Assembly (NCBI GenBank): GCA_963712745.1
Contig: CAVQJC010000020.1
Span: forward strand, 544,001 to 608,000
DNA from: an uncultured Chloroflexia bacterium
GTDB taxonomy: Bacteria > Chloroflexota > Limnocylindria > Limnocylindrales > CSP1-4
Reading direction: 5' to 3'
Length of the DNA: 64,000 nt
In this document: in pieces, positions 1-19,348 of the stretch
Layout: each line of letters opens with the position of its first letter
How positions within the stretch are numbered: the stretch's first letter is position 1
The notes under the pieces: model-generated
The model's database searches: none
What the model saw: only the letters and a program-made list of their open reading frames with translations
Told to the model about the DNA's origin: nothing
Translations under genes and position numbers: made by a program

Positions 1-456
1 GGCGGCAACGTGCCCGGCGGCTTCATCGGCCGACCCAACTACGAGCAGCACGTGCTCGAGTGGGAAGCGCGCCATGTCGCTTGGGTGCAGGATCGCGGCA
101 CGCCCGCCTCCTATCACAACTGCGGCCAGATCCAGGTGCTGGTCGAAGCCTACAAGCGTCTCGGCGTGGCGGCCGTGGAGCCATTCTCACCGCCGCCCAA
201 GCTGGGCGACGCGGACCTTGCAGAAGCCAAGCGAGCGGTCGCTGGCGACTACGTCATCATCGCCGGCATCGACCAGGTGGACGTCATCCAGAAGGGCAAC
301 GTCGAAGCTGTCCGCCGAGCCACAGCGGAGGCCATGCACATCGGCAAGCCGGGCGGCCGCTTCGTGCTGCAGAACGCCGACTTCCTGGAGTACGGCACGC
401 CCGTGGCGAACGTGGAGGCCTTCGTCGAGACGGCCATCGAGGGCGCCTGGTACTAG
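1..456 (+). CDS. Uroporphyrinogen decarboxylase-like / MtaA-CmuA family protein (C-terminal part, 5' truncated by window)
   Basis: Frame is open from base 1. Contains YHNCG (H-x-C metal motif), IIAGIDQVDVIQKG and GGRFVL...GTPVANVEAF, the typical C-terminus of the URO-D superfamily TIM barrel. Confidence 0.8.
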   Translation, partial: GGNVPGGFIGRPNYEQHVLEWEARHVAWVQDRGTPASYHNCGQIQVLVEAYKRLGVAAVEPFSPPPKLGDADLAEAKRAVAGDYVIIAGIDQVDVIQKGNVEAVRRATAEAMHIGKPGGRFVLQNADFLEYGTPVANVEAFVETAIEGAWY

Positions 457-490
457 CGCACCGGCCGGCGCGGCCCTCGTCTGCCGAGCC

Positions 491-1030
491 TCAGGGAGCC
501 GCGCGGTGCTTCGACACGAGGTCGGCCACGATATCGGCCACGCGGGGCAGAGCCGCCTCCACGGCCGGGCTCAGCCCCTCTCCCAGCTCGATGTCGGCGA
601 TGCCGATGCCGATGGCCACGGCCTCGGGACGGTGGCCCCCCAGCTCGGCCGCCAGCGCCACGAGCTCGCCGGCACCGACGTGATGCGACGAGGCCCCGGG
701 TTCGGCGCGCGTGTCCGCATCGGAGCGGGGCGCATCCGCCTCGAGATGGTGGATCTCGATGGAGCCAGGCAGTCCGCGCATGTCCGCATCGACGAAGATG
801 GCCAGCGTGGCCGCCGCGATGTCGAGCGACATCTCCGGCAGCAACTGATGCGCCCCGCGCACCTCCACGTCCTCGCCCGCCAGCCGTGGATCGGATGCCA
901 GCAGCTCTGCCGCCCGCGCACCCACGCCATCGTCCCGGCGGAGCATGTTGCCGAACCCGATGACGAGCACGTGACGCGAAGGGGCGCCGCTCCCTTCGTT
1001 GGGGGCGACGCCCTGGTCGTTCGGACACAT
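491..1030 (-). CDS. hoxW: Hydrogenase maturation endopeptidase (HoxW-type)
   Basis: VLVIGFGNMLRRDDGVG, IFVDA and SSHH motifs; directly downstream of the large subunit gene. Confidence 0.9.
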   Translation of the reverse strand: MCPNDQGVAPNEGSGAPSRHVLVIGFGNMLRRDDGVGARAAELLASDPRLAGEDVEVRGAHQLLPEMSLDIAAATLAIFVDADMRGLPGSIEIHHLEADAPRSDADTRAEPGASSHHVGAGELVALAAELGGHRPEAVAIGIGIADIELGEGLSPAVEAALPRVADIVADLVSKHRAAP

Positions 1031-1046
1031 GTCCAGAGGGGACTCC

Positions 1047-2468
1047 CTAGCGCTTGACGCGGTCGATGATCTCCCCGTCGGGCGAGAGCAACTGGATGTC
1101 CAGCGCCATGTCGCCGAGCGCGTGCGTCGAACAGGACAGGCAGGGGTCGTAGCAGCGGATGACCGCTTCGACCCGGTTGAGCATCGGCTCCTGGATCTTC
1201 TCGCCCTTCACGTGGTGGCGGGCCACCTGCTGCACGGAGCGGTTCATGGCCATGTTGTTGTGGCCGGTGGCGATGACCAGGTTGGCCCACTCCACGAGGC
1301 CGTCGTCGTCGACCCGGTAGTGGTGCATCAGCGTGCCGCGGGGAGCTTCGGAGACGCCGATGCCCTCGTTGCGGTTGATGCCGGCCGTGGCGAGCACGTG
1401 CCTGGACAGGATGTCCGGGCTGCGCAGGATCTGCTCGATCTTCTCGATCGCGTGCAGCGTGTCGATGAGCCGGGCGTAGTGGTAGTGGAAGGACGAGCCG
1501 GCCACACGACCGACTCGCCAGCGGAACTTCTGCAGCTCCTCGTCGGCACGCGGGGTGCCGGTCGCCTCGGCCACGTTGAGGCGCGCCAGCGGACCTACGC
1601 GATAGATGCCGTCGGGATAGCCCATCGGCTTGTAGTAGGTGGACTTGAGGTAGGACCACGGCTCCACGGCCTCGCCGATGTAGTCGTTGAAGTCCTTGGG
1701 ATTACCGCGGTCGACCAGCGGACTGCCGTCGGCATCGATGATGCGCAGGTCGCCGCCGTAGTGGTCGACATTGCCCTTCTCGTCGACAAGGCCCATGAAG
1801 GCGGAGCGGAAATTGCCGAAGGTCGACGCCTCCTCCTCCCACTTCATCATGTCGGTCTTGTACCAGGCGATGGCCCGCTGGAGCTGGGCGATGGCCTCGG
1901 GCACACCGGCCAGGATCTGGTCGCGGACCTCCTCGCTCAGCGGGTCGGCCACGCCTCCGGGCACGATGCCCCCCGGATGGATGCGCTTGCCGCCGAGCAG
2001 CGCGATGATCTCCTGGCCCCACTTGCGCAGGCCGATACCGTCCTTGGCCAGCTGCGGGTTCTCCTGGGCCACCGCGATGATGTGGCGCTTGGAGGAATCG
2101 GCGTCGAAGCCGAAGAGCAGGTCCGGCGAGGAGAGGTGGAAGAACGAGAGTGCGTTCGACTGGACGATCTGGCCGAGGTTGATGAGACGGCGCAGGTCCG
2201 CGCCTGTGGGCGGGGGGTCGACGGCCAGGATGTCGTCGACGGCCTTGGCCGAGGCGACCAGGTGGCTGACAGGGCAGATGCCGCAGATGCGCGCCATGAT
2301 GGCCGGCATCTCGTGGACCGGGCGGCCCTGGACGATGCGCTCGAACCCGCGGAACTGGGTCACGTGGAAGCGGGCGTCCGTGACCTCACCCTGCTCGTCG
2401 AGCTGGATAGTGATCTTGGAGTGGCCCTCGATCCGCGTGACCGGATCGATGGTGATCGTTCGACTCAT
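1047..2468 (-). CDS. hoxH: Bidirectional NiFe hydrogenase large subunit (group 3d)
   Basis: N-terminal PVTRIEGH, L1 motif RICGICPVSH, L2 motif DPCLSCSTH followed by a cleavable C-terminal extension. Confidence 0.96.
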   Translation of the reverse strand: MSRTITIDPVTRIEGHSKITIQLDEQGEVTDARFHVTQFRGFERIVQGRPVHEMPAIMARICGICPVSHLVASAKAVDDILAVDPPPTGADLRRLINLGQIVQSNALSFFHLSSPDLLFGFDADSSKRHIIAVAQENPQLAKDGIGLRKWGQEIIALLGGKRIHPGGIVPGGVADPLSEEVRDQILAGVPEAIAQLQRAIAWYKTDMMKWEEEASTFGNFRSAFMGLVDEKGNVDHYGGDLRIIDADGSPLVDRGNPKDFNDYIGEAVEPWSYLKSTYYKPMGYPDGIYRVGPLARLNVAEATGTPRADEELQKFRWRVGRVAGSSFHYHYARLIDTLHAIEKIEQILRSPDILSRHVLATAGINRNEGIGVSEAPRGTLMHHYRVDDDGLVEWANLVIATGHNNMAMNRSVQQVARHHVKGEKIQEPMLNRVEAVIRCYDPCLSCSTHALGDMALDIQLLSPDGEIIDRVKR

Positions 2469-2480
2469 GCTGGGGGGCTC

Positions 2481-3020
2481 CTATCGACCGAACCGTGAAC
2501 CGGCCGCCTCGGGGACGCGGCCGGAGAGCAGGTCATCGAGCAGGGTGTAGATGAGGTCCGCTGAGGGCGGGCAGCCCGGCAGGAAGACGTCGACGTCGAC
2601 GATCTTGTGGACCGGCGTCGACATGGGCAGCAAGGCCGGCACCACCTGGGTCGGCATCTGCGCGTTGATGGTCACGTTCTCGCGGTACGAACGATCCATC
2701 AGCGGCTCGACGCCGATGGGGTTGCGCATACCGGGCACGTTCGAGGTCACGGCGCAGTCGCCGAAGGCGATGATGGTAGTGGTGTGCTCGCGGACCAGTT
2801 TGACCTTGTGCAGGTCGTCCTCGCTGGACACCGCGCCCTCGACCAGGCAGACATCCACGTGCTCGGGGTAGTCCTTCCAGTCGACCAGCGGGCTGTAGAC
2901 GAGATCGGCCCGGCTGAAGATGTCGAGGATGCGCTCGTCCATGTCGATGAGCGACATGTGGCAACCCGAGCAGCCGTCCAGCCAGACGGTCGCGACTGAT
3001 GGCTTCCTTGACTCACTCAT
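2481..3020 (-). CDS. hoxY: Bidirectional hydrogenase small subunit
   Basis: WLDGCSGCHMS, GDCA and PGCPP motifs; no Tat signal. ATG at 3020 overlaps the hoxU stop (ATGA). Confidence 0.93.
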   Translation of the reverse strand: MSESRKPSVATVWLDGCSGCHMSLIDMDERILDIFSRADLVYSPLVDWKDYPEHVDVCLVEGAVSSEDDLHKVKLVREHTTTIIAFGDCAVTSNVPGMRNPIGVEPLMDRSYRENVTINAQMPTQVVPALLPMSTPVHKIVDVDVFLPGCPPSADLIYTLLDDLLSGRVPEAAGSRFGR

Positions 3021-3733
3021 AGACCGCGCTCCTCTCGGACCACCTTGAGCCACGGCAGGAACGGGCGGCGGTCCTTGCTACCGGCTGCGACCGGTCGGCC
3101 CTTCTCGAAGAGCGCCCCGGTGGGACAGACCTGGACGCACTTGCCACAACTGGTGCATGTCGTGGACTCGCCCCAAGGGGCGCCCATGTCCGTCTGGACA
3201 CGGGTCTCGAGGCCACGATGCATGACGTCCCAGGTGTGTGCGCCCTCGATCTCGTCGCAGACCCGCACACAGCGGAGGCACAGGATGCAGCGGTTGTGAT
3301 CGATGGCGAAGAACTTGTGACTGGCGTCGATATCGACGGCAGGGTTGATGCGGGGCAGGTCGAAGTGCTTGATGCCAAGCTCGTCGGCCATGTCCTGGAG
3401 TTCGCAGTGGTTGTTGGCGACGCACACGGCGCACACGTGATTGCGCTCCATGAACATCATCTCGGTGATCGCCTGGCGGTACTCCAGCAGCTTCTCCGAG
3501 TGCGCGGTGATGTCCATGCCCTCGGCGATCTTGGTCATGCAGGCAGCCGCGAGCTTGGGTGAGCCCGCGATCTCGACCATGCACAGACGGCAGGCACCAC
3601 GGTCGGTGATGCCCTCGAGGTGACACAGGCCCGGGATGTCGATGCCGTTCTCTTCGGCCACTTCCATCACGGTCTGGCCTTCGTTGCCGGCGACGTCCTT
3701 GCCGTCGATGGTCAGCGTGAAGACATCGCTCAT
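3017..3733 (-). CDS. hoxU: Diaphorase Fe-S subunit HoxU
   Basis: 2Fe-2S N-terminus (IPGLC...GACRLC), HVCAVC...CELQ and two 4Fe-4S motifs ([23 protein letters not shown]). Confidence 0.94.
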
Positions 3734-5382
3734 GCCACTACCTCAGCTGGCTTCGAGATGGGACAGACGCCGGCGGGACAGGTCTTGTCCACGATATGAG
3801 CCATGTACTCATCCCTGAAGTAGCGCAGCGTGCTGAAGATGGGGTTGGGTGCGCCCTGGCCCAGGCCGCAGAGAGACATCTTCGCGACGATGCCGGCCAG
3901 CCGCTCGAGCTGGGCCAGGTCGTCCTCGGTCGCCTCACCTTTGGTGATCTGGTCGAGGAGCATGTACATCTGCGTGGTGCCCACGCGGCAGGGAGTGCAC
4001 TTGCCGCACGACTCGTCACGACAGAAGTCCTGGAAGTACTTGGCCACATCGACCATGCAGGACGTGTCGTCCATGACGATCATGCCGCCCGAGCCCATGA
4101 ACGAGCCGAGCTCGATGAGGGTCTCGTAGCTGACCGGCGTGTCGAGGTGTTCGGCCGGGATGCAGCCACCCGACGGGCCTCCAGTCTGGACCGCCTTGAA
4201 GGGTCGGTCGTCGATGATGCCGCCGCCGATGTCGAAGATGATCTCCCGCAGGGTCATGCCCATGGGCACCTCGACCATGCCGGTGTTGACGACGCGGCCG
4301 GCCAGCGCGAAGACCTTGGTGCCCTTCGACTTGCCCACGCCGATGGCCGCGTACTTGTCGGGGCCATCACGGATGATGGTGGGGATGCTGGCCAGCGACT
4401 CGACGTTGTTGATGAGCGTGGGGCTGCCCCATAGGCCTGACACAGCCGGGTACGGGGGACGTGGCCGGGGCGTCCCGCGACGGCCCTCGACCGAGGCGAT
4501 GAGCGCCGTCTCCTCGCCGCAGACGAAGGCGCCCGCACCGAGGCGGACCTGCAGGTTGAAGGCGAACGAGGTGTCCATGATGTTGTCGCCCAGGTAGCCG
4601 GCTCGCTGCGCCAGCCGGATGGCCGTCTGCAGGCGCTTGACCGCGAGCGGGTACTCCGCACGGCAGTAGACATAGCCCTCGCTGGCATGCACGGCGAAAG
4701 CCGCGATGGCCATGCCTTCGAGCACGCGGAAGGGGTCGCTCTCGAGGACGCTGCGGTCCATGAAGGCGCCGGGGTCGCCCTCGTCGGCATTGCAGATGAC
4801 GTACTTCTTGTCGCCGGTGGCCTTGGCCACTGTGGTCCACTTGAGGCCGGTCGGGTAGCCGGCGCCACCGCGACCGCGGAGCCCCGATTCCATGACCTCG
4901 TCACGCACCTCGCCCGAAGTCATCTCGCTGAGGACCCGGCGCAGTGCCTGGTAGCCACCCACGGCGATGTAGTCGTCGAGGCTCTCGGGGTCGACCAGCC
5001 CGAAGTTCTCGGTGGCCACCCGCACCTGCTTCTCGAAGAAGGGGCCCTGGGGCTGTCGCTGCGCGTCGGGCGCGACCGCGTCGAGGGCTGCGGCGATGGA
5101 CTCGGCCTGGTCGGGGCGGATGTGCTCGAACAGCTCGCCTGTCTCGCCGATCTCGACCAGCGGGCCGGCGGCGCAGAGGCCGAGACAGCCGACACGCTTG
5201 ACGACCACGTCGGACTTGCCTTCGGTCAGCTCGCGCAGGCGGGCAGTGATCTCGTTGGCGTTGCCGGACATGCAGCTTGCGGCCTCGCACACGCGAGCGG
5301 TCGCGCGCGGCGGGCCGGCGTTCTCGTCGATGGTGATGGTGCGGTGACGCTTGGGGCGCGCCGCAGCTGCGTTGTCGCTCAC
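3730..5382 (-). CDS. hoxF: Diaphorase NAD/FMN-binding subunit HoxF (NuoF-like)
   Basis: [41 protein letters not shown] and [12 protein letters not shown] motifs, plus an N-terminal thioredoxin-like 2Fe-2S domain. Confidence 0.95.
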
Positions 5383-5870
5383 ATCGCCTCCAGTTCAGCC
5401 ATGAGCAGATCGGTCACGGCCTTGCCCTTCATCTCGCCATCGACGATGACGGCCGGGGCCAGGCTGCAGGCACCGATGCAACGGGCAGTCAGCAGGGAGA
5501 GCCTGCCGTCCTCCGTGGTGCCCTTGGGCTTCACGCCAAGTCTCGCATCGAAGGCCTCGATGATGTCGCGGGCGCCGTTGATGTAGCAGGCGGTGCCGGT
5601 GCACACCACGCAGGTGTGGTCGCCTTGCGGCTTGAGCGAGAAGAACGAGTAGAAGGTGGCGACGCCGAAGACGCGGGAGTGTGGGACACCGAGCGTGTCG
5701 CCGATGAAGTGCAGCGCGTCGTCGTCGAGGAAACCGAAGGCCTCCTGCGCGGCGTGGAGGGCCTCGATGAGCGCCTCCGGACGATCGCCGTGGCGGCGCA
5801 TGCGCGTCGCGACGATCTTCCAGCGCTTGTCATCATTGGGTGGTGCGGGTTTGCGGTACGGGATAGGCAT
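5379..5870 (-). CDS. hoxE: Diaphorase 2Fe-2S subunit HoxE (NuoE-like)
   Basis: DDKRWK...LIEALH.AQE.FG, GVATFY, CTGTAC and CIGAC motifs. Start chosen at ATG 5870 (MPIPYRK) after AAAGG. Confidence 0.93.
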
Positions 5871-6000
5871 GCGCGCCTTTCGAGGTCGTTGGTCAGACTG
5901 GCTGTGCCTGGCCCCCGCCCACATCCCAATAGGACCTGCCGGGGGCCACAGGCCGTGCTCTCCAAGCATAGGCACCGAACATCAGGGATTCGGGGTCCGA

Positions 6001-6023
6001 GCGGCCCCTTTCAGAGGGGCCGC
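6001..6023. other. GC-rich hairpin upstream of hoxE
   Basis: GCGGCCCCT-TTCAG-AGGGGCCGC, a perfect 9-bp stem. Confidence 0.5.
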
Positions 6024-6066
6024 GTGTACACGACGGCGTGCTCGACGGGTGCGCCACGGTTCCCAG

Positions 6067-6284
6067 CGGCCACCTCCCACCGGCCGGAGCGTGCACCTCA
6101 TGCACCAGTTCGACCACCGGCCACCGGCCACCGGCCGGAGCGTGCACCTCATGCACCAGTTCGACCAGCCGGCCACCTCCCACCGGCCGGAGCGTGCACC
6201 TCATGCACCAGTTCGACCAGCCGGCCACCTCCCACCGGCCGGAGCGTGCACCTCATGCACCAGTTCGACCAGCCGGCCACCTCC
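6067..6284. repeat. Tandem repeat, about 52 bp x 4
   Basis: Core GGAGCGTGCACCTCATGCACCAGTTCGACCA starts at 6086, 6137, 6189 and 6241. Each copy contains the inverted repeat GTGCA-N5-TGCAC. No unique spacers. Confidence 0.95.
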
Positions 6285-6530
6285 AGGCGTCGGGCCCTGT
6301 CATGCGGTGGCTTGCGTTGACGTTCTCGGTCGTCTGGTGCAAGGGACAGGCGGCATCCACGACCACGACCCCTCAGGACGGCCAGCATCGTCGAACTCGT
6401 GCGTGGGGCGCAGGGCGTTCACGACGAGTCGGCCGGGCGGAGACCGAGTAGACCGCGCTGCTCGTCGGGCCCATTGGCGCCACGAGCCTGTTCGTCGGCT
6501 GGCACATCCCAGCGGCGGCGCCGGTACGCC

Positions 6531-7649
6531 CTAGTAGTGCGTGTCGCGGATGGTCTCGATCATGGCCCAGAAGTTCTCCAGCGGCGTATCGAGCTGGACG
6601 TGGTGGGTGGGCCCCAGGATGAGTCCCCCACCGGCGCCGATGGTGGCCACCCGCGTGCGAATCTCCGAGCGTACGTCGTGGGGCGTCCCGAAGGGCAGCG
6701 TCTTCTGCTCATCGATCGAGCCCCAGAAGAGGAGCCTGTCGCCGTAGTCGCGCTTGAGCTCGGCCGGGTCCATGCAGGCCGGCTGGACCGGGTTGAGCAC
6801 GTCGATGCCGATCTCGATGAGCTCGTCGATGACCTCGCGCACGTCGCCGTCGGTGTGATATGCCACCTTGAGCTCGGGGTTGATGGCCTTGACGCGGCTG
6901 ACGAGCTCGGCCATGCGCGGCTTGAAGAACCGCCGCCAGGTGTCGGGGTGGAAGAGCATGCCCTTCTGCGAGCCGATGTCATCGCCGGTCCAGATCATGT
7001 CCACGCCCATCGCGGCCAGCTTCTCGGCAGCGGCCAGGTGATAGCGGAAGGGGATCTCGAGGATCCGGTCGGCCAGCTCCGGGTTCATGACCAGGTCCAT
7101 CAGCAGCCGCTCGTAGCCACGCAACGCCCAGGCCGTCTCGAAGATGGTGGTAACGGTGACACCCACGATCCAGTACTCGTCGCCGTACTCGCGGATGACC
7201 CGCTCGGAGTCGGTGTACAGCTCCGGGCGGTGCGGGTCCGGCGGCTGGTACGCATCGATGGCGTCGTCCTCGGCCAGCGGGAAGCCGACCATCTCGGTGT
7301 AGTGCCCGGTACCGAACGGTGTCTGGTAGGGGTGCTCCCGCCAGGTCACGCCCCACTCGTCGGTGTAGGTGTCGTGGCCGGCGTAGTAGTTGTTGGCCCA
7401 GCCCACTGAGGTCAGGATGAGATCGGAATCGATGGCGCGCTCAAGCTCGTAGGTGTTGCCGCCGCCGTGGGGATTGTGTTCACCCCCGCGGGCTACGTTC
7501 AGCCTGCCCTCGACCGTCCCGAGCTCCCCCCGGGCGACCATATCGGCACGCAGCCGTTCGGCGAACTCGGGCGTGAAGCTGATCTGCATCGGGCAGCGAT
7601 CGGGCACCTCGCGGGCGAGGGCCGTCGCCACCCGGTCGCGATGCCGCAT
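6531..7649 (-). CDS. Uroporphyrinogen decarboxylase-like (URO-D/MtaA superfamily) protein
   Basis: YTDEWGVTW, GDDIGSQKGML, YHTDG, VLNPVQP, WGSIDEQKTLPFGTP and GLILGPTH motifs; adjacent to the corrinoid protein gene. Confidence 0.85.
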   Translation of the reverse strand: MRHRDRVATALAREVPDRCPMQISFTPEFAERLRADMVARGELGTVEGRLNVARGGEHNPHGGGNTYELERAIDSDLILTSVGWANNYYAGHDTYTDEWGVTWREHPYQTPFGTGHYTEMVGFPLAEDDAIDAYQPPDPHRPELYTDSERVIREYGDEYWIVGVTVTTIFETAWALRGYERLLMDLVMNPELADRILEIPFRYHLAAAEKLAAMGVDMIWTGDDIGSQKGMLFHPDTWRRFFKPRMAELVSRVKAINPELKVAYHTDGDVREVIDELIEIGIDVLNPVQPACMDPAELKRDYGDRLLFWGSIDEQKTLPFGTPHDVRSEIRTRVATIGAGGGLILGPTHHVQLDTPLENFWAMIETIRDTHY

Positions 7650-10663: not shown

Positions 10664-12249
10664 TTGGCCTCCCCTCCTGCCGCGGCCGCCTCGGCGGCCG
10701 CCCGACGTACCCTGAGGTGCTCGTGCATGGCCAGCTCGAGTACCTGTTCCTCGGTCGTGCCCGGTCCGGGCAGCTCGCCGGTGATGCGGCCGCCCTGCAT
10801 CACATAGATGCGGTCGGACATGCCCAGGATCTCGGGCAGCTCCGACGAGATAAGCATGATGGCGAGACCCTCGTTGGCCAGCGCGTCTATGAGCCGGTAG
10901 ATCTCCGACTTGGCGCCGACGTCGATGCCGCGGGTGGGCTCGTCGAGGATGAGCACCTTGGGCTTGGCGGCCAGCCAGCGCGCAAGCACGACCTTCTGCT
11001 GGTTGCCACCGGAGAGTTTGCCCACCTCCTGGTCGATCGAGGGCGTGCGCACGTTAAGTCGCTGCACGTACTCGGTGGCGACCTGTCGCTCCTGGCGCCG
11101 CTGCACGATGCGGAACCGAGTCAGCCGTCGGATGATGGCCAGCGTGATGTTCTCGAGCACGCTTCGGATGAGCACCAGACCTTCGCGCTTGCGGTCTTCG
11201 GGAGCGAAGCCGATGCCCTCAGAGATAGCGTTGCTGGGCTGACCGATGCTGACCTGCTTGCCGTTGATGACGACGTCGCCTGATGACTTGGGCAGCTCGC
11301 CGAAGATGACCTTGGCCAGCTCGCTCCGACCAGCTCCGATGAGGCCGGCGAAACCGACGATCTCGCCGGCCTTGATGTCGAATGAGACGCCGTTGTGCCA
11401 TAGGCTCTGGACATCGCGCACCTCGAGCACCACGCGATCGGTGGCCGCGGGATGGCGGTCGAAGACCTCGCCCAGGTCGCGCCCGACCATGTTGCGCACG
11501 ATGTCGTCCTCGGTCAGCGCGGAGGCCTGTTCGACGATGACCAGCTTGCCGTCGCGCAGGATGGCCACGCGGTCGGCGATCTGCATGATCTCGTGGAGTC
11601 GGTGGCTGACGTAGATGATGGCCACGCCCTCCGCGCGCAGCCGACGTACGAGCGTGAAGAGCTGGTCGACCTCCTCTTCGGTCAGCGATGAGGTCGGCTC
11701 ATCGAGCGCAAGGATGCGCATCCTCGATCTGACCGCGCGCATGATCTCGACCAGCTGGCGCTGGGCCGAAGACAGCTCGTCGCCCATGCGCCAGCGCGGC
11801 AGTGACCGCTCGAAGCCGTACTCCGCCAGTTCGTGGTCGACCCGCGCGTTGAGTGCGCCGCGGTCGATGAACGGCCCACGCTTGGGCAGTTCGCCGGCGA
11901 AGATGTTCTCGGCCACGTCGACGCCGGGGATGATCTCGGGCTCCTGGTAGATGACGCGGATCCCGGCCGAGCGCGCCTCTCGCGGGTTGGCGAAGTGCAG
12001 CTGCTCCCCATCGATGCTGAGCGTGCCGAGATCGGGTCGATAGTCGCCGCTAAGGATCTTCAGCAGTGTCGACTTGCCGGCTCCGTTCTCGCCGAGGAAG
12101 GCGAGCACCTCGCCGGGTCGGACGTCGAGCGAGACGTCGTCGAGGGCCTGGACGTTGGGAAAAGCCTTGCTGACGTGGCGGATCTCGAGGACGCCGGAAC
12201 CGACGTTTGGCTCGGCTGCGGAGGCCTCGGGAGGCGCGGTCAGGGTCAT
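10660..12249 (-). CDS. Monosaccharide ABC transporter ATP-binding protein (RbsA/AraG type, two domains)
   Basis: GENGAGKST, LDEPTSSL, LSGGNQQKV and DEPTRGIDVGAK motifs. Confidence 0.96.
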   Translation of the reverse strand: MTLTAPPEASAAEPNVGSGVLEIRHVSKAFPNVQALDDVSLDVRPGEVLAFLGENGAGKSTLLKILSGDYRPDLGTLSIDGEQLHFANPREARSAGIRVIYQEPEIIPGVDVAENIFAGELPKRGPFIDRGALNARVDHELAEYGFERSLPRWRMGDELSSAQRQLVEIMRAVRSRMRILALDEPTSSLTEEEVDQLFTLVRRLRAEGVAIIYVSHRLHEIMQIADRVAILRDGKLVIVEQASALTEDDIVRNMVGRDLGEVFDRHPAATDRVVLEVRDVQSLWHNGVSFDIKAGEIVGFAGLIGAGRSELAKVIFGELPKSSGDVVINGKQVSIGQPSNAISEGIGFAPEDRKREGLVLIRSVLENITLAIIRRLTRFRIVQRRQERQVATEYVQRLNVRTPSIDQEVGKLSGGNQQKVVLARWLAAKPKVLILDEPTRGIDVGAKSEIYRLIDALANEGLAIMLISSELPEILGMSDRIYVMQGGRITGELPGPGTTEEQVLELAMHEHLRVRRAAAEAAAAGGEAK

Positions 12250-12271
12250 GCGTTCACCGGAGGTGTGAGGA

Positions 12272-12316: not shown

Positions 12317-12329
12317 GTTCCAGGACTGG

Positions 12330-13343
12330 CTACTGCGAGCAGTTGGCCAGGGATTCAGGGGTGAAGATATCGGTGTACGTCGTGGGGTCCACGATCGAGG
12401 TGGGAGCGATGGTGAAGGCCGGCAGATCAACGCCGTTGACGACGTTCTCGTACAGGACCTCGGCAGCCGACGCTCCGACGTCCAGGCCGGAGATGTACAG
12501 CGCAGCCTTGAACCCGCTGGGCTGATCGGCAGCCCAGAACTTGCAGGCCTCGTAGGCCCCAAGGCCGACGCCCAGGATGTTGTCGGGTGAGACGCCCTGC
12601 GTGGCGAGCGCGTTCAGGACGGCGAGAACGCCTTCGTCATTGCAGGCGAAGACGACCCAGTGGGTCACGTCGGGATGGGCGGTGATGACGGGGCCGGCCT
12701 TGTCCTGCGCATCGGGTGACTCGCCCGTGTACTGGACCTGGAAGATCGACTCGGCCGGAACGCCGACATCGAGCATGGCCTGCTTGGACGCGTTGGTGCG
12801 ATCCTCGCAGACGGACAGCGTCGGGACCTCGGTCGACAGGACGCCGAGGGTGATCGCCTCGTCCTCGAGCCAGCCACCTTCGGTCAGCAGGCGCGCGGCC
12901 TCTGCGCCCACCTTGGCGCCCATGTCGGGGCCGCTGAAGCCCACGAAGGGGACGGGGTTCCCAGCGGAATCCACGATGCTATCGTCGGTCGCCACGAGGG
13001 CGACGCCGGCCGCCGCGGCGGCGTCCGAGATAGCCGGGCCGATGGTCTGGTCGGGCACGGTGATGGCGATGCCGGCCGCGCCGGCGGAGATGGCGTCGTT
13101 CACGAGGTTGACACCCAGGCTCGGATCGAGCTTGGCGTCGGCCTTGAGTGACGTGGCGCCGAGCTCGGCGGCCTTGGCTTCGAACGAATTCTGCAGGTCG
13201 ATGAAGTACTGCTGGTCTGCGCTCTTGTTGATGACGTAAAGCAGCGGGGCCTCGTCCTGCGCGACCGCCGGCAGGGCGGAAGCGGTCAGGAGCGCGGCGC
13301 CACCCAGGGCGACCAGGGTCTTCTTGAAGCGAGAGTCAACCAC
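12330..13343 (-). CDS. Sugar ABC transporter substrate-binding protein (type I PBP, arabinose-binding-like)
   Basis: Signal peptide (KKTLVALGGAALLTASALPAVA-Q) and AraF-like motifs K..QQYF and CNDEGVL. GTG at 13343 lies 7 nt after GGAGGA; the ORF track starts it at 13358. Confidence 0.85.
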   Translation of the reverse strand: MVDSRFKKTLVALGGAALLTASALPAVAQDEAPLLYVINKSADQQYFIDLQNSFEAKAAELGATSLKADAKLDPSLGVNLVNDAISAGAAGIAITVPDQTIGPAISDAAAAAGVALVATDDSIVDSAGNPVPFVGFSGPDMGAKVGAEAARLLTEGGWLEDEAITLGVLSTEVPTLSVCEDRTNASKQAMLDVGVPAESIFQVQYTGESPDAQDKAGPVITAHPDVTHWVVFACNDEGVLAVLNALATQGVSPDNILGVGLGAYEACKFWAADQPSGFKAALYISGLDVGASAAEVLYENVVNGVDLPAFTIAPTSIVDPTTYTDIFTPESLANCSQ

Positions 13344-13503
13344 GAGCGATTCCTCCATTCCTCCGAAAGGGTTGGCTGGGACGTGTCGATGTTACCTGTT
13401 TCCAACACGAAACAACACGTTCTCTGGCAGATTACGTCCGAAGGTGCCCTCCTTCTGTTTCGACGGCGCGCTGTCCCTTCTCACCGGCCGCCTGGAAAGG
13501 TAC

Positions 13504-13649: not shown

Positions 13650-16600
13650 ATGGAGCAGACCCCGCTGCGACTGCCCGAGCGGCCCCGGCACCTGCGCGAC
13701 CGCGACGTCGCCGCCTGGTCCGAGCCGGTGGTCATCGACACGTATCCGACGCCCGCGCCCGACCGCAATCCACTCTTCCTCGAGAACCGCGTGTACCAGG
13801 GCTCGTCTGGTCGGGTCTATCCCAACCCTGTCACCGACCGCGTCTCGGATATGGCGGTGCCCACGTCCTGGGAGGCGGTCCACCTCGAGAACGAGTACCT
13901 GCGCGTGATGATCCTGCCCCAGATCGGCGGCCGCATCCACGTGGTCCAGGACCGCCAGACCGGCTACGACGTCTTCTACCGCCAGAACGTCATCAAGCCG
14001 GCCCTGGTGGGGCTGCTGGGTCCGTGGATCTCCGGCGGCGTCGAGTTCAACTGGCCCCAGCATCACAGGCCTTCCACCTTCATGCCGACCGACTACGAGA
14101 TCGAGTCGCTGCCCGACGGCGGGGCCGTGGCGTGGTGCTCCGAGCACGAGCCCACCGATCGCATGAAGGGTATGCACGGCGTGGTCCTGCGGCCCGCCTC
14201 GTCGGTGCTGGAGCTGGCGGTCAGGCTGGGCAACCGGACCCCGCTGGTGCAGACGTTCCTGTGGTGGGCCAATGCGGCGGTGCGCGTGCACGACGACTAC
14301 GAGGCCTACTTCCCCCCGGACGTGACCTACGTGGCTGACCATGCGCGGCGCGCGATGTCTACGTTCCCTTGCGCTGAGGGCCGCTACTACGGCGTCGACT
14401 ACGGGTCGCGCCCTGCGCGCGATGCGGACCTGCGCTGGTACCGCAACATCCCTGTGCCTACGTCCTACATGGCCATGGGCACGGCGGCGGACTTCTTCGG
14501 CGGCTACGACCACGCTGCAGGCGAGGGCTTCGTCCACTGGGCCGACCACACCATCAGCCCGGGCAAGAAGCTGTGGACCTGGGGCAACCACGAGTTCGGC
14601 TACGCCTGGGACCGTGAGCTGACCGACCAGGATGGTCCCTACGTCGAGCTCATGGCGGGCGTGTTCACCGACAACCAGCCCGACTTCGGGTTCCTGCTTC
14701 CGGGCGAGGTGCGCACGTTCAGCCAGTACTGGTATCCGCTCGTCGGCACCGGGCCGGTACAGGCGGCCAACCTCGACGCCGCCGTGCGCCTCTCACGAGG
14801 GGCCGGCGTCGCCCATATCGGCGTGGCGGTGACGCGCCCGCGCGACGGGGCCACCGTGCGCCTCACCGAGCGGGGTCGGCCGATCTTCGAGCGCACCGTG
14901 GACCTTGCCCCAGGATCACCGTTCCTGGCCGGGGACATCGCGCTCGGCGAAGGCGCCAGGACGGCCGAGCTGCACCTGGCCGTGCTCCACGACGGGAGGG
15001 AGCTCATCAGCTACCAGCCCGCAGTGCGGCGTCGGGGCGATCCGCCTCCACCGGCTACCGAGCCGCCGCCGCCGGCCGAGGTCGAGACGCTCGAGGAGCT
15101 GTGGCTCACGGGCATGCACCTGCAGCAGTACCGCCACGCCACGCGCCGGCCAGAGGCCTACTACCGCGAAGCTCTGCGGCGGGACCCAGGCGACAGCCGC
15201 AGCAACACGGCCATGGGCGAGTGGCACCTACGCCACGGCGAGTACGCCCAGGCGGAGCAGCATCTGCGGGCAGCGCTGGAGCGACTGTCGGTGCGCAACG
15301 CCAACCCGCGGGACGGCGAGGCCAGCTACCTGCTGGGCGTGACACTGCGACTGGCCGGGCGCCCTGGCGAGGCGGACGAGGCCTTCGGCAAGGCCGGCTG
15401 GAACGGCGCGTTCGGAGCAGCATCCGATATCGCGCGGGCGGAGATCGCCTCGGCGCGAGGGGACACTGGCGCGGCCATGGCCCTGCTCGAGCGAGCGCTC
15501 CGCTCCAACGGCGCCGAACCCGGAGCCCTCGGCCTGCGAGCCGCTCTCCTGCGGCGCGGGGGTCGAACGACCGACGCGCGCGAGGCTGTGGCTTCGATGC
15601 TGGCCGCCGATCCGCTCGACATCCGCGCACTCCATGAGCGCGCCCTGCTCGATGGGGCCGATGGCCCGTTGCCGGGCGGTGCCCAGGCCGCCCTCGACAT
15701 CGCCCATGACGAGGCCCGCGCGGGGCTGCTCGAAGAGGCAGTCGATGCCCTGGAGCGCGCCATCGAGGCCGGCCCCGGCCCCGGGCACGCGCCACTGCTG
15801 CACTACACGCTGGCCTGGCTCGAAGCGCAGCGCGGGGACCATGCGGCAGCTTCACGCGAGCTGCGACTGGCGCGGAAGGTTGCTCCCGACTACGCCATGC
15901 CGGCCCGCCTCGAAGAGATCGCCGTGCTCGAGTGGGCCATCGGGCAAGATCCGTCCGACGCACACGCCCCCTACTACCTGGGCAACCTGCTCTACGACAA
16001 GCGGCGCTATCACGACGCCATCGCCGCCTGGCGACGCGCGGCCCGGCTGGACCCGGACTTCGCGACCGTGCACCGGAACCTGGGCATCGCCGAAACCAAC
16101 GTGCTCCACCGGCCGGAAAGGGCGCTGAGCGAGTATCGCAAGGCCTACCGGGCCGATCCAAGCGACGCCCGAGTGCTCTACGAGCTCGACCAGCTGCGAA
16201 AACGTCTGGGGCACGACCCTTGGGCCAGGCTGCGAGGGTTGGAGGCGGCGCTTGACGTCGTCGACGAGCGTGATGACCTCACCGTCGAGTTCGTGACCCT
16301 GCTCAACCTCGCCGGTCGCCACGGTGAAGCCGCCGAGATCCTCTGCGAGCGACGCTTCCACCCCTGGGAAGGCGGCGAGGGCCTGGTCTCGGAGCAGTGG
16401 GTCGTGGCACGGCGAGAACGCGCCCGTGCGCTCAGGGAGTCGGGCCAGCCCGCGCTCGCCGCCGAGCTCCTGCGCCTGGCCATGGTCTATCCGCCGAACC
16501 TCGGCGAGGGCAAGCACCTGCTGACGCCGGAGAACGAGCTGCAGTACCTGCTCGGTGAGTGTCTTCGCGATGCTGGCGAATGGGACGAAGCGAACGCATG

Positions 16601-16979
16601 GTTCCGGCGGGCGGCCCAACTGCAGGGCGACCCGGGTGCGCCCGCGGGCGACGGCCCCTACTGGCAGGCGCTGGCCCTGCGCGCCCTGGGTGATGACGTT
16701 GCGGCCGAATCACGCTTGACCGCGCTGGCCGATGCTGCCGCCGCGCAGGCGCGAACCGAGGTCACCATCCCCTATTTCGCCACGTCGCTGCCCACGTTGC
16801 TGCTGTTCGACGACGACCTCTCCGAGCGGGCCCACCAGGAGGCGGCCTACCTCGAAGGACTGGCGCTGATGGGCCGGGGCCAGACGAAGGCCGCCGCCAG
16901 CCGCTTCCGGGCGCTGCTCGCAGCCCGTCCCGACCATCTTGATGCCGCCCTGCGCCTCGCCGAGCTCGAGCGAGGCTGA
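13650..16979 (+). CDS. DUF5107 domain + tetratricopeptide repeat protein
   Basis: RVYQGSSGRVYP, LENEYL, IKPALVGLLGPWISGGVEFNWPQHHRP, PGKKLWTWG and ELMAGVFTDNQPDF, then TPRs and FHPWEGGEG. GGAGGA RBS. Confidence 0.88.
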   Translation: MEQTPLRLPERPRHLRDRDVAAWSEPVVIDTYPTPAPDRNPLFLENRVYQGSSGRVYPNPVTDRVSDMAVPTSWEAVHLENEYLRVMILPQIGGRIHVVQDRQTGYDVFYRQNVIKPALVGLLGPWISGGVEFNWPQHHRPSTFMPTDYEIESLPDGGAVAWCSEHEPTDRMKGMHGVVLRPASSVLELAVRLGNRTPLVQTFLWWANAAVRVHDDYEAYFPPDVTYVADHARRAMSTFPCAEGRYYGVDYGSRPARDADLRWYRNIPVPTSYMAMGTAADFFGGYDHAAGEGFVHWADHTISPGKKLWTWGNHEFGYAWDRELTDQDGPYVELMAGVFTDNQPDFGFLLPGEVRTFSQYWYPLVGTGPVQAANLDAAVRLSRGAGVAHIGVAVTRPRDGATVRLTERGRPIFERTVDLAPGSPFLAGDIALGEGARTAELHLAVLHDGRELISYQPAVRRRGDPPPPATEPPPPAEVETLEELWLTGMHLQQYRHATRRPEAYYREALRRDPGDSRSNTAMGEWHLRHGEYAQAEQHLRAALERLSVRNANPRDGEASYLLGVTLRLAGRPGEADEAFGKAGWNGAFGAASDIARAEIASARGDTGAAMALLERALRSNGAEPGALGLRAALLRRGGRTTDAREAVASMLAADPLDIRALHERALLDGADGPLPGGAQAALDIAHDEARAGLLEEAVDALERAIEAGPGPGHAPLLHYTLAWLEAQRGDHAAASRELRLARKVAPDYAMPARLEEIAVLEWAIGQDPSDAHAPYYLGNLLYDKRRYHDAIAAWRRAARLDPDFATVHRNLGIAETNVLHRPERALSEYRKAYRADPSDARVLYELDQLRKRLGHDPWARLRGLEAALDVVDERDDLTVEFVTLLNLAGRHGEAAEILCERRFHPWEGGEGLVSEQWVVARRERARALRESGQPALAAELLRLAMVYPPNLGEGKHLLTPENELQYLLGECLRDAGEWDEANAWFRRAAQLQGDPGAPAGDGPYWQALALRALGDDVAAESRLTALADAAAAQARTEVTIPYFATSLPTLLLFDDDLSERAHQEAAYLEGLALMGRGQTKAAASRFRALLAARPDHLDAALRLAELERG

Positions 16980-17035
16980 TCGGCCCGCGCTACGCTGGAG
17001 CCACATTCAACGACAGCCTATCTGGGAGGGATCCG

Positions 17036-17683
17036 ATGGACAGCATCCTCGAACGGATCGCACAGGCCGGAGTCGTCCCGGTCGTCGTCATCGACGACCC
17101 TGCGGACGCGTCGGCGCTGGTGGGCGCGCTGGCCGAGGGGGGCCTGCCCCTGGCCGAGATCACATTCCGCACGGCCGCCGCCGAGGATGCCATCCGGGCC
17201 GCGGTCGCAGATCACCCCGACGTGCTCGTGGGAGCCGGCTCCGTGCTGTCGCTCGAGCAGGTCGATGCCGCAGTCGCAGCCGGCGCCAGCTTCGTGGTCA
17301 GCCCCGGTCTCGAGGAGAACGTGGTGCGTCGCACCCTTGACCACGGCGTCCTGGCGCTGCCCGGCTGTGCCACCGCCAGCGACCTCATGCGCGCGCGCCT
17401 GCTGGGGCTGGACGTGGTCAAGTTCTTCCCGGCCGAGCCGAGCGGCGGACTGCCCATGATCAAGGCCGTGGCGGCGCCATTCCCGGGCCTGCGCTTCGTT
17501 CCCACCGGCGGAGTCAACACCACCAATCTCGAGGAGTACCTGGCCGACCCGCGCATCCTCGCGGTGGGCGGCTCGTGGATGGTCAAGCCGGCCATGATCA
17601 AGGCCAGGGACTGGACCGGCATCACCGCCGCTGCTCGCGCGGCAGTGGCAGCCGTGCGCCGGGCACGCAGCGGCCGCGCATAG
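17036..17683 (+). CDS. eda: KDPG/KHG aldolase
   Basis: EITFRT, VGAGSV, VSPG, KFFPAE and FVPTGGV motifs. Confidence 0.92.
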   Translation: MDSILERIAQAGVVPVVVIDDPADASALVGALAEGGLPLAEITFRTAAAEDAIRAAVADHPDVLVGAGSVLSLEQVDAAVAAGASFVVSPGLEENVVRRTLDHGVLALPGCATASDLMRARLLGLDVVKFFPAEPSGGLPMIKAVAAPFPGLRFVPTGGVNTTNLEEYLADPRILAVGGSWMVKPAMIKARDWTGITAAARAAVAAVRRARSGRA

Positions 17684-17734
17684 GCTCTGCCCGGGCGGAC
17701 GCCTCCGCCGCAGCGCGGCACGAAGCCGACAGGC

Positions 17735-18367
17735 CTAGCGAGCCACCGAGGCCGTCACCTGACGCGCCCGCTCGGTCACTCCAGCCGGGTCGCCGTCGCC
17801 GATGAGCCAGCCGCCCATGCCCACGGCCACTGCTCCTGCAGCGATCCAGTCACCGGCCGTCTCTGCAGAGACGCCACCGGTGGGCACGAACGGGATACCC
17901 GGGAACGGCCCTGAGATCTGCTTGAGGTAGGCGGTGCCGACGGCGGCAGCGGGAAACAGCTTCACCGCGCTCGCCCCAGCCGACCAGGCAGCATGGATCT
18001 CCGTCGGCGACAAGGCTCCCGGGAAACATGGCACGGCATTGAGCGCACACCAGGTGATGAGCTCGGTGTCGGTGTGGGGTGAGACGATGAATCTCGCACC
18101 GGCGTCGACCGCTCGCTTGGCCGCTCCGATCGAGAGCACCGTGCCCGCCCCCACCAGGGCATCAAGATCGTCGGCCACGCCTGCGAGTGCCTCGATCGCC
18201 CGCAGCGCGTCCTGCTCGGGCTCGTTCAGCGTCAGCTCCATGACGTGGACGCCACCGGCTAGCAGCGATTCGCCGATGCGGGGAGCGGCGGCGGCGGCGA
18301 TATTGCGCCCGATGGCGATGACCCTGCTGTCACTGACGAGCTCGGGGATCGGCGGACGGTCGGTCAT
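17735..18367 (-). CDS. Second KDPG/KDPGal-type aldolase
   Basis: IAIGR, ELTLN, VGAGTV, VSPH, KLFPA and VPTGGV motifs; ATG at 18367 (MTDRPP). Confidence 0.88.
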   Translation of the reverse strand: MTDRPPIPELVSDSRVIAIGRNIAAAAAPRIGESLLAGGVHVMELTLNEPEQDALRAIEALAGVADDLDALVGAGTVLSIGAAKRAVDAGARFIVSPHTDTELITWCALNAVPCFPGALSPTEIHAAWSAGASAVKLFPAAAVGTAYLKQISGPFPGIPFVPTGGVSAETAGDWIAAGAVAVGMGGWLIGDGDPAGVTERARQVTASVAR

Positions 18368-18462
18368 GTCGGCTCCGGGTCTCGGAGGTGTTCGGTGAAT
18401 GGCACCATCGTGCCAGAGAAGGCCCACACCAGCGCGCGACCCGACCCGCACCGGAGGACGAC

Positions 18463-19348
18463 ATGCCCCCACGTACGCTTCCCGCTCCTCAGGATCCTCT
18501 ACCAGCACGATGCCTTGGTGGGCGAGGGGCCCGTGTGGGATCCGCGCATCGGCAGGCTCGTCTGGGTCGACATCCCCAACAACCAGGTCTTCACCACCGA
18601 CCCCAACACCGGTCAGACCGCGAGCCGGCAGTTGGACCGCGCGGTCGGCGTGGTCCTGCCGCGCGCCTCGGGCGGCTACGTGGCGGCCCTGCAGGACGGC
18701 TTCTACACGCTGCCTGACGAAGGCGAGCCCGAGCTCATCGCGCCGGTCGAGGCAGACGACCCCACCACCCGCCTGAACGACGGTGAGACCGACCCGCAAG
18801 GCCGCTTCTGGGCCGGCACGATGGGCTGGCAGGCGGAGCCGGAGGCAGGCACGCTCTACCGCCTCGATCCCGACGGCACGGTCAGCCGCATGGTCGATGG
18901 CATCACCATCAGCAACGGTCTCGGCTGGAGCCCCGAAGGCACGACGATGTACTACGTCGACACCCCTACCCTGCGGGTCGACATGTTCGACTACGACCCG
19001 GCCAGCGGCGACATCACCAACCGGCGGGAGTTCGTGACCATCCGCCACGGCGGCGGCAGGCCCGACGGCCTGACGGTCGACAGCGAGGGTGCCGTGTGGG
19101 TCGCGACCTGGCCCGGCTACGGCGTCCACCGCTACCTGCCTGACGGCTCGCTCGACGCGGTCATCCCGCTGCCGGTCTCCAACGTCTCGAGCATCGAACT
19201 GGGCGGGCCCGACCTGCGCGACGCCTTCATCACCACCGCCTGGGAGCTGCTTTCCGAGGAGGAGCACGCGGCCCAGCCGCTGGCCGGCAGCCTCTTCCAC
19301 ACTCGGGTCGATGTGCCTGGGCGGCCACGCGTGCCGTTCGCGGGCTGA
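18463..19348 (+). CDS. SMP-30/gluconolactonase family protein (probable +1 frameshift near the 5' end)
   Basis: GEGPVWD, RLNDG..D.QGRFWAGTM, ISNGLGWSP and PDGLTVD motifs. The GGAGG-ATG at 18463 is out of frame by one base; the alternative is GTG at 18395. Confidence 0.85.

Follow-up and report, generated by a model that had tools for sequence, protein, structure and literature searches.

Monosaccharide uptake genes beside corrinoid and MtaA-like genes in a Chloroflexota genome: a candidate system for methylated sugars with a Hox hydrogenase operon in its midst

The left end of the window, a stretch of 64,000 nucleotides from the genome of an uncultured Chloroflexota bacterium (G000:C20:544001-608000, on contig CAVQJC010000020.1), carries genes associated with sugar uptake, corrinoid-dependent methyl transfer and hydrogen metabolism, among them the gene of an enzyme of the URO-D/MtaA fold that we call UROD5. 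The assembly amounts to 4.2 Mb in 20 contigs with a G+C content of 68% and is 84.55% complete. Genes in the window were called with Pfam and NCBIfam, and open reading frames (ORFs) were scanned at positions 1-26159, with some small ORFs left out. Labels denote related loci (L###), genomes (G###, G000 being that of the window itself) and contigs (C##), and CP stands for the corrinoid protein in gene orders. A first-pass annotation, made from the sequence alone, had described one minus-strand run of an AraFGH-like ATP-binding cassette (ABC) importer, a mutarotase-like gene, a B12-binding protein, a URO-D gene, a repeat array and hoxEFUYHW, and the domain searches together with a repeat scan found this run in place (Table 1). 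The same searches bore out a second URO-D-like gene with an H-x-C motif (YHNCG) that converges on hoxW at the far side of the run, as well as a DUF5107-TPR gene divergent from the importer. The two KDPG-type aldolases and the SMP-30 lactonase said to follow the latter are all present, but the second aldolase is encoded by the minus strand. The earlier gene list thus holds apart from this strand, from two genes that turned out to be split, and from its left limit, since the cluster extends beyond base 1.

The cluster runs about 15 kb past the left edge of the window, where four more URO-D-fold genes were identified. In the 18 kb to the left, read from the window outwards, UROD4 (frameshifted, with its start about 744 bp left of the window) is followed by UROD3 (motif LHYCGN), an EamA transporter, a weak URO-D-like gene, UROD1, a PTE-family protein, a ROK protein, a PF12831 FAD oxidoreductase, a GntR/UTRA regulator, and a full-length metH. 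The stretch is best explained as a composite of two units, namely unit A for sugar uptake and corrinoid methyl transfer, and unit B consisting of hoxEFUYHW. Unit A would comprise the AraFGH-like importer, the mutarotase-fold protein, the corrinoid protein of about 209 aa, UROD5 and the YphG-like protein and, past the left edge, UROD4, UROD3, UROD2 and UROD1, then the EamA, PTE, ROK, FAD oxidoreductase, GntR and metH genes.

Table 1. Features at the left end of the window, with positions in the window, strand and basis of assignment.
Feature	Positions	Strand	Basis
UROD4, C-terminal 151 aa, motif YHNCG	1-456	+	Pfam URO-D E 9.3e-10; TIGR01463 E 1.3e-8
hoxW-like hydrogenase maturation protease	491-1030	-	TIGR00072, 81.9 bits vs cut-off 47.45
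hoxH	1047-2468	-	Pfam
hoxY	2481-3053	-	Pfam
hoxU	3017-3733	-	Pfam
hoxF	3730-5382	-	Pfam
hoxE	5379-5975	-	Pfam
Tandem repeat, period 52 bp, 4.3 copies, in the UROD5-hoxE spacer	6063-6284	.	Repeat scan
UROD5, URO-D/MtaA-fold enzyme	6531-7649	-	Pfam URO-D E 1e-27
Corrinoid protein, about 209 aa, split in two frames (7926-8306 and 7678-7923)	7678-8306	-	Pfam B12-binding_2 and B12-binding; TIGR02370
Galactose-mutarotase-fold protein, without Pfam or NCBIfam match	8478-9416	-	AlphaFold2 and Foldseek
AraH-like ABC permease	9491-10663	-	Pfam
AraG-like double ATPase	10660-12249	-	Pfam
AraF-like binding protein	12330-13358	-	Pfam; 1abe E 1.1e-29
YphG-like DUF5107 and TPR protein, 1109 aa, divergent from the importer	13650-16979	+	Pfam DUF5107 E 1.4e-54
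KDPG/KHG aldolase (Eda)	17036-17683	+	PF01081 E 3e-64; TIGR01182, 236.4 bits vs cut-off 156
Second Eda-family aldolase	17735-about 18400	-	PF01081 E 2.5e-37; TIGR01182, 170.7 bits vs cut-off 156
SMP-30/SGL (gluconolactonase-family) lactonase	18395-19348	+	PF08450 E 4.2e-82

The neighbourhood of UROD5 was surveyed in one genome per species, in which at least 594 stretches matched and 576 were confirmed; the best 80 loci were kept. They belong to metagenome-assembled genomes (MAGs) of Chloroflexota classes, Acidobacteriota, Planctomycetota, Spirochaetes, Halanaerobiales, Gemmatimonadales, and others. By identity to UROD5, 14 loci stand at 80% or more, 9 at 70.5-80%, and 57 below 70.5% (termed distant here). 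ORFs of the loci were called by the GC3>GC1>GC2 rule for G+C at the three codon positions, which missed the anchor ORF in 9 of the 80 loci; the tallies rest on tblastn anchors, so these loci were kept. Counts of metH in the neighbour tally corresponded to the corrinoid protein cross-matching the B12 domain of MetH and were ignored. Within 10 kb of UROD5, the distant loci bore an ABC ATPase (31 of 57), a permease (30), a binding protein (27), a further URO-D paralog (24), and a LacI regulator (15), followed by the corrinoid protein (11), a mutarotase-fold protein (6) and DUF5107 (3). In 12 of them, a permease gene on the same strand ended no more than 400 bp upstream of UROD5. Among the 9 loci of intermediate identity, 7 had a URO-D paralog and 5 a corrinoid protein. 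Clusters of neighbours built de novo within 7 kb and named by Pfam included an FGGY kinase (11 loci), a FucI-like isomerase (8) and GH42 (4), and a class II aldolase was found within the same distance in 7 of 66 loci (6 of them distant), as was GalK (7, of which 6 distant). Altogether, at least one carbohydrate-type neighbour was present in 39 of the 57 distant loci, and a sugar-catabolic enzyme of the fucose, arabinose or galactose type in 23. Other neighbours were a Peptidase_M24-family gene beside the importer or UROD5 in 7 distant loci (e.g., L093:123-1217) and, within 7 kb in 3 of 66 loci (2 distant), a glycyl-radical enzyme (L051:10887-14015, L071, and L107), whose frame in L051 also bears radical-SAM activase domains.

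The order of the genes is likewise preserved in several of these loci. For example, L048 reads DUF5107 / binding protein-ATPase-permease-CP-UROD5-UROD3-UROD4, and L046 reads CP-UROD5-UROD3-UROD4-UROD1-GntR, followed at some remove by FAD oxidoreductase-ROK-PTE; L049 contains all the module genes of both around CP-UROD5. In L064 and L058, two binding proteins, an ATPase and a permease precede a URO-D gene, UROD5 and the corrinoid protein, and the importer orthologs of these Anaerolineae loci are 63-71% identical to those of the window. Two low-GC loci show related layouts, namely LacI-binding protein-ATPase-permease-UROD5-CP-URO-D-URO-D in L092, and PocR/AraC-ATPase-permease-binding protein-UROD5 in a Spirochaetales MAG (L059:2948-6856), located behind genes for SHMT, FolE2 and a thymidylate-synthase-like protein. 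A family of 373 aa without a Pfam match (e.g., L093:5830-6951) is distantly similar to UROD3 (24% identity, E 1e-6), with FHIDG where UROD3 has LHYCG. It is likely an obligate partner of UROD5, because it lies directly beside it, on the same strand and within 184 bp, in 13 of the 14 distant loci that have it.

A synteny search for corrinoid protein, URO-D gene, sugar ABC importer and DUF5107 was accordingly positive in other genera and classes (L048, L049, L058, L064, L087, and L097). The association that the first-pass annotation had drawn from this one stretch, of corrinoid and URO-D genes with a monosaccharide ABC importer, a mutarotase fold and DUF5107/YphG, therefore recurs in distant loci, and does so statistically across the 57. 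In the genome of the window itself, 10 of 19 URO-D places are situated within 8 kb of one of 34 monosaccharide-type permeases, as against a proportion of 0.107 for random sites (binomial 7.5e-6, the places not being fully independent). The arrangement is beyond chance, because it recurs outside the genus and because of this excess of neighbouring permeases.

Members of the UROD5 family share 64-72% identity across at least six phyla. At E<=1e-20, 4298 proteins belonged to it among 8000 scored candidates, and the best 120 were at least 67% identical. An alignment of 17 sequences contained the invariant motifs HNPHGGGN, GDDxGxQ (G222-D-D-x-G-x-Q228), YH(T/S)DG and PTHHVQLDTP, with His265, Asp267, His349 and His350 of UROD5 present in all 17. 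The sole solved relative by sequence is MtaA (4ay7; E 1.7e-11, 17-18% identity), the HICG of which aligns to HSDG/HTDG and the PGCG to PTHH. Where MtaA has His-x-Cys...Cys, residues that we take to be its zinc ligands, UROD5 has His265-x-Asp267 and His349/His350. The AlphaFold2 (AF2) model has the (beta/alpha)8 fold of URO-D, with 4ay8 (E 4.9e-11) and 4ay7 (E 7e-11) as the top Foldseek matches and HemE structures behind them. UROD5 nevertheless scores 72.8 bits against TIGR01463 (MtaA/CmuA), for which the cut-off is 235.4, and the UROD4 fragment at 1-456 does not reach that cut-off either (34.5 bits). UROD5 would thus be MtaA-like in fold and predicted partner, yet it is placed outside the MtaA/CmuA family because its score lies under the family cut-off. 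We regard it as a candidate substrate:corrinoid methyltransferase. Contigs from an RNA library (run X17) matched UROD5 with no differences in 228 bases and one in 151, which is a weak hint of expression because DNA can occur in RNA libraries.

The corrinoid protein encoded next to UROD5 has the features of a methyl carrier, that is, a cap domain, a Rossmann domain, and the DxHxxG motif (GDLHDIG). A complex was modelled from UROD5 and the intact corrinoid ortholog of L034, which is 91% identical to the product of the split gene in the window. The pair scored 0.78 and the best of three controls 0.00; by rough counts based on our own alignments, the score mark is reached by 58 of 80 solved complexes and by 2 of 110 mismatched pairs. 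The runs share at least 80% of their contacts, the pLDDT (predicted local distance difference test) of the partner is 81-82, and the modelled interface brings residues 227-237 of UROD5, beside the invariant G222-D-D-x-G-x-Q228, against the invariant V59-P-E-M-L63 of the corrinoid protein. The model supports a predicted binding of UROD5 to this carrier. In the loci at 70.5-80% identity, the corrinoid gene is found directly upstream of UROD5 in 5 of 9. When considering genomes whose UROD5 locus has no corrinoid gene, five of five encoded cap-domain ORFs other than MetH elsewhere. These ORFs, of 284-375 aa, could presumably be CarH-like regulators, and the test was therefore repeated with a corrinoid-protein profile; a further five of five such genomes gave full-length matches at E 8e-79 to 1e-96, compared to 1.9e-41 for a MetH-sized frame. 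As a control, four of four congeners without a URO-D paralog match had only MetH-sized corrinoid matches (E 1e-24 to 1e-34). Congener G007 had three URO-D paralog matches and three small corrinoid-protein matches. All these genomes are kin and not independent, and we treat the co-occurrences as consistent observations, not as statistics. In G007, a URO-D paralog 38% identical to UROD5 is located directly upstream of a corrinoid match (G007:C40:66659-68253), the same pairing at another locus.

Taken together, the neighbours of UROD5, the co-occurrence of corrinoid proteins with its control, and the complex model support a link between sugar import and B12-dependent methyl transfer. The genome as a whole bears 22 URO-D matches, MetH along with seven small cap-domain ORFs, two RACE proteins, and two small pterin-binding ORFs near one RACE. 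Genes for RACE and for a methyltransferase had been looked for past the left edge of the window; metH is found there, but RACE and the small pterin-binding ORFs are not, being on contig C11, where the two RACE (PF14574) matches score 316 and 219 bits. At about 370-385 kb, this contig holds a canonical-looking corrinoid hub with RACE at 370258, pterin-binding ORFs at 373478 and 378727, URO-D genes at 381286 and 383155, and a corrinoid protein at 384729. The second RACE is at C11:319147, and at G000:C11:344992-345576 a corrinoid match lies at zero distance from, or overlaps, a URO-D match, a possible fusion. According to the ligands aligned to those of MtaA, the URO-D paralogs form groups with HxC...GC (3), HxC...H (5, including UROD1), and HxD...H (5, including UROD5), and a fourth group with no third ligand, which includes UROD3 and UROD4.

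Regarding the uptake genes, the best solved relative of the binding protein is the L-arabinose-binding protein (ABP) of E. coli (1abe, E 1.1e-29). In their alignment D89, D90, R151 and N205 are kept, and M108, M204, N232 and D235 are replaced by F, C, G and E, respectively; this comparison, which presumes the roles of these ABP residues, is only a lead. The gene at 8478-9416, described at first as mutarotase-like, indeed encodes a predicted galactose-mutarotase fold, which was reached by structure modelling (pLDDT 91.6), with galactose mutarotases as the best Foldseek matches (4bze, E 3.6e-13), E. coli YphB (3nre) at rank 6, and the DUF5107 structure 5cd6 at rank 8; Atlas pointed the same way, and a sequence search against solved structures returned chance-level rows only (E 0.5 or more). 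The DUF5107 protein, encoded by a single-copy gene, is 38% identical to E. coli YphG over its full length (1102 aligned columns). The yphGFEDCB/yphH locus of E. coli K-12 resembles the present one: in both, genes for a CUT2-type ABC importer and for a protein of the mutarotase fold adjoin that of the YphG homolog, and a ROK gene is close by. The resemblance has its limits, as YphB shares only the fold with the mutarotase-fold protein (E 0.007 over 78 residues), and a zinc dehydrogenase, YphC, takes the place of the corrinoid protein and UROD5. The importer was also considered as a YphDEF ortholog, which was rejected for the binding protein since it has no similarity to YphF. Among the papers listed, and judged by title or abstract, the literature search returned nothing functional on yphG and no related paper on DUF5107.

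The hox genes encode all components of a Hox-type NAD-linked [NiFe] hydrogenase (PF01257; PF01512 with PF10589; PF13510 with PF10588; PF01058; PF00374) together with HoxW (TIGR00072). Compared with the canonical bidirectional HoxEFUYH plus HoxW, the order is canonical and the operon ordinary; only its position within the module is unusual. Genomes matching UROD5 accounted for 16 of 41 sampled relatives, all within the genus (15 of 24 congeners), and for none of 16 small genomes of another family. In all 10 congeners fetched, CP-UROD5 is followed by hoxEFUYHW on the same strand, and in 7 the importer and DUF5107 gene adjoin CP-UROD5, being absent in G005, G011 and G014. Outside the genus the picture is different: hox is no more than 10 kb away from the UROD5 ortholog in 11-12 of the 14 loci with at least 80% identity, in none of the 9 at 70.5-80%, and in none of the 57 below, and the genes that flank hox in the window are contiguous without it in L046 and L048. 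Moreover, G007, which has no UROD5 ortholog, carries hoxEFUYHW 74-83% identical to that of the window (hoxW 40%) in another context, with no CP, URO-D or ABC query gene within the 38 kb fetched; four other congeners without UROD5 have hoxH homologs of 32-34% only. In the 10 congeners, UROD5 and hoxE are between about 140 bp and 5.5 kb apart, with other genes in between in G011. In the window, the spacer is 555 bp and includes the 52-bp repeat, which is private to this assembly (at this one place in the genome, and absent from the 40-kb stretches of 10 relatives and from all 80 loci). The length of the array varies in nature, as 30 bases at 6084 are missing from one contig of public run X2. A scan of 5800-6700 for promoters and terminators returned none of either and is uninformative for this kind of organism; contigs of four public runs did not cover 6236-6443, within the spacer. 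Shares of words stayed under 0.5 in all 20 public runs, and no habitat is named from them. Since the module occurs without hox in L048, L046 and L049, the most economical view is that the module existed first and that hox, an independent neighbour, entered it in this genus.

Of the Entner-Doudoroff-type ending proposed for the pathway, two aldolases and one lactonase are present, with ROK, PTE and FAD oxidoreductase genes on the left flank, but no sugar dehydrogenase, dehydratase or kinase was found among the ORFs scanned at 1-26159, a scan that omitted some small ORFs. The Eda aldolases and the lactonase are found with the module within the genus and, beyond it, only in L049; they occur in 0 of 57 distant loci, which carry isomerase, kinase, class II aldolase, GalK and GH42 genes instead. 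The case for this ending is thus weak. To the right of the lactonase, positions 19408-26159 hold a glutaminyl cyclase (minus strand), a family-less ORF at 20545-21537, a SpoIID-domain protein, a carbon-nitrogen hydrolase, and a GT87 glycosyltransferase; their synteny is kept in congeners, and elsewhere they lie outside the module.

Two genes of the methyl-transfer set are frameshifted. In the corrinoid gene, a 2-bp GT insertion around 7920-7930, outside any homopolymer, breaks the frame; the DNA alignment has AACGTGTCAGCC in the window and AAC--GTCAGCC in four of four aligned relatives, and the orthologs in relatives are intact at 208-211 aa. UROD4 has a +1 frameshift about 90 bp left of the window (L001 about 17900-17960) and is in frame in four of four relatives holding both halves. 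Contigs of public runs without the two inserted bases account for a depth of 6.5 of 6.5 in X2 (two contigs) and 7.18 of 21.8 in X1, but may derive from relatives. Split genes of all kinds are common in congeneric assemblies (hoxH, hoxF, metH, DUF5107, and others, in G005, G011, G014, G021 and G002), and both frameshifts may be assembly errors for this reason.

The mechanism we propose for unit A would start with the import of a methylated sugar of the arabinose, galactose or fucose type. From this sugar UROD5, perhaps with its paralogs, would methylate the corrinoid protein in its Co(I) state, with the His/Asp/His triad at the position of the MtaA zinc ligands. A second methyltransferase, either another URO-D paralog or the pterin-binding proteins of C11, would unload the methyl-Co(III) carrier to tetrahydrofolate or a thiol; tetrahydrofolate is hinted at as the acceptor because a pterin-binding-like ORF lies immediately upstream of CP-UROD5 in L047. 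Oxidised carrier would be reactivated in trans by one of the two RACE-type activases, and the freed sugar would pass via the mutarotase-fold protein and ordinary sugar enzymes into ordinary catabolism. The candidate substrates, O-methyl galactose, fucose or arabinose, would come from polysaccharides of plants, algae and microbes. We advance methyl-sugar demethylation by unit A tentatively, at a little less than an even chance. The wider proposal is possible but somewhat less assured, namely that UROD5, its paralogs and the small corrinoid protein make up an O2-independent, cobalamin-dependent demethylase of alkyl (sugar) methyl ethers across Chloroflexota, Acidobacteriota, Planctomycetota, Spirochaetes, and others, with the roughly 20 paralogs of this genome serving different methylated sugars.

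Several points weigh against the demethylation proposal. Its substrate, the direction of transfer and the acceptor are all inferred. No RACE/RamA activase was found in the locus (the window plus 18 kb to its left), nor was any pterin-binding methyltransferase in the window or left 18 kb except the MetH domain. To our knowledge, the known O-demethylases of the UroD superfamily act on aryl methyl ethers, and a sugar alkoxide is a poorer leaving group. UROD5 lacks the cysteine ligands of MtaA, falls short of the family cut-off, and has a mediocre AF2 model (pLDDT 68.9, residues 1-90 below 50); the passing complex score can reflect likeness between families, not binding by this copy. The surveyed genomes are kin and not independent, and several contigs appear both among the 14 genus-level loci and among the congener regions fetched. 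The frameshifts in the corrinoid gene and UROD4 may also mean that the module is inactive in this strain. Decay of this kind, with both frameshifts as real mutations, would be compatible with any function of the intact module, and would accord with an insertion outside a homopolymer, a +1 shift in UROD4, and the fact that these two, of about 33 genes in the region, both belong to the methyl-transfer set. We nonetheless think it unlikely, given that split genes of every kind in congeneric assemblies point to assembly error and that X2 and X1 yield contigs, albeit possibly from relatives, without the insertion.

Two other accounts of the enzymes themselves have to be considered. The methyl donor of the corrinoid and URO-D proteins might not be a sugar but, for example, a methoxylated aromatic, a methylated thiol or selenide, or methanol, with the sugar genes as mere neighbours. 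The canonical hub on C11, with its RACE, pterin-binding, corrinoid and URO-D genes, is in keeping with such a role, and so are the characterised corrinoid methyltransferases of the UroD superfamily named in the available text of PMC10418091 (the coenzyme M methyltransferases, SCMTs, as well as OdmB and VdmB), which use donors of this sort. This account is improbable in our judgement, as same-strand adjacency to monosaccharide importers, LacI, and isomerase, kinase, aldolase, GalK or GH42 genes recurs across phyla, as more than half of the URO-D places in the genome adjoin such a permease, and as the binding protein is AraF-like. Alternatively, UROD5-type enzymes might not be methyltransferases at all and might carry out another reaction on a sugar derivative, for instance decarboxylation or hydrolysis, the corrinoid protein serving other paralogs only. 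The founding activity of the URO-D fold is a decarboxylation without a cofactor, the His/Asp/His triad differs from the zinc site of MtaA, and just 11 of the 57 distant loci have a corrinoid gene within 10 kb of UROD5, which leaves 46 without one. The modelled complex with the adjacent corrinoid protein, the corrinoid gene directly upstream at intermediate identity, the corrinoid proteins encoded elsewhere in 10 of 10 genomes that have none beside UROD5, and the lack of stand-alone corrinoid proteins in congeners without URO-D paralogs speak against it, and we consider this possibility a slim one. The full model of the first-pass annotation, in which methyl-sugar demethylation is coupled to Hox through NAD(H) balance or reductant for corrinoid activation, is co-transcribed with it, and ends in an Entner-Doudoroff-type route, seems very unlikely. 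The constant order in 10 of 10 congeners with a UROD5 ortholog, the lack of an orthologous hoxH in four UROD5-less congeners, and the aldolases and lactonase near the module in most congeners and L049 agree with it, but hox is beside UROD5 in this genus only (0 of 66 loci elsewhere), G007 has hox without the module, the spacing is variable and holds a private repeat, and the aldolases and lactonase are missing from every distant locus.

When compared to known systems, the proposed methyl transfer is nearest in enzyme structure to MtaA (4ay7/4ay8) and MtaC, UROD5 having MtaA as its best fold match and a partner of the same corrinoid family (TIGR02370). It differs from MtaA in its low identity, its His-x-Asp and His-His residues, its score below the family cut-off, and a bacterial host without a coenzyme M context. 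In marine bacteria, 6-O-methyl-D-galactose is demethylated by an O2-dependent cytochrome P450 system with release of formaldehyde. The purpose would be the same, as the sugar is freed from its methyl ether before catabolism, but the system proposed here would be independent of O2 and would conserve the methyl group. With the three-component corrinoid O-demethylases (the UroD-superfamily methyltransferase I OdmB or VdmB, a corrinoid protein, methyltransferase II, and an activase), it shares a small carrier with a cap domain and DxHxxG, several URO-D-fold paralogs and RACE activases in the genome, and the same Co(I)/methyl-Co(III) logic; unlike them, it has a context of monosaccharide importer and sugar enzymes and no methyltransferase II or activase in the locus. 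In the available text of PMC3727330 and PMC10418091, the substrates of corrinoid O-demethylases are aryl methyl ethers. On the evidence of the same available text, the nearest published genomic parallel is the type 1 mlp clusters (Kountz & Balskus, bioRxiv 2023, PMC10418091), mostly of Firmicutes and proposed for methyl-sulfur or methyl-selenide metabolism, in which, as here, several UroD-superfamily paralogs stand beside one corrinoid protein, outside methanogens, and with no tetrahydrofolate methylase in the cluster. Those clusters include a Ram/RACE gene, which is absent from the present locus, and the main text of that paper makes no mention of sugar, carbohydrate, ABC transporters or Chloroflexi. 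Our literature search, with most subscription journals and supplements outside its coverage, found no paper on corrinoid-dependent sugar demethylation.

Reading hox as an independent neighbour removes a tempting but unsupported link between the module and hydrogen metabolism. Plant, algal and microbial polymers often contain methylated sugars, and the only route of sugar demethylation we know of needs oxygen. If the demethylation proposal is true, it would explain how anaerobes and bacteria of sediments and soils unlock methylated sugars and feed the methyl groups into one-carbon metabolism, and it would bring alkyl ethers, besides aryl ones, within the reach of corrinoid O-demethylation. The UROD5 family, with its high conservation, His/Asp/His triad, predicted corrinoid partner and defined importers, offers a biochemical handle on this chemistry.

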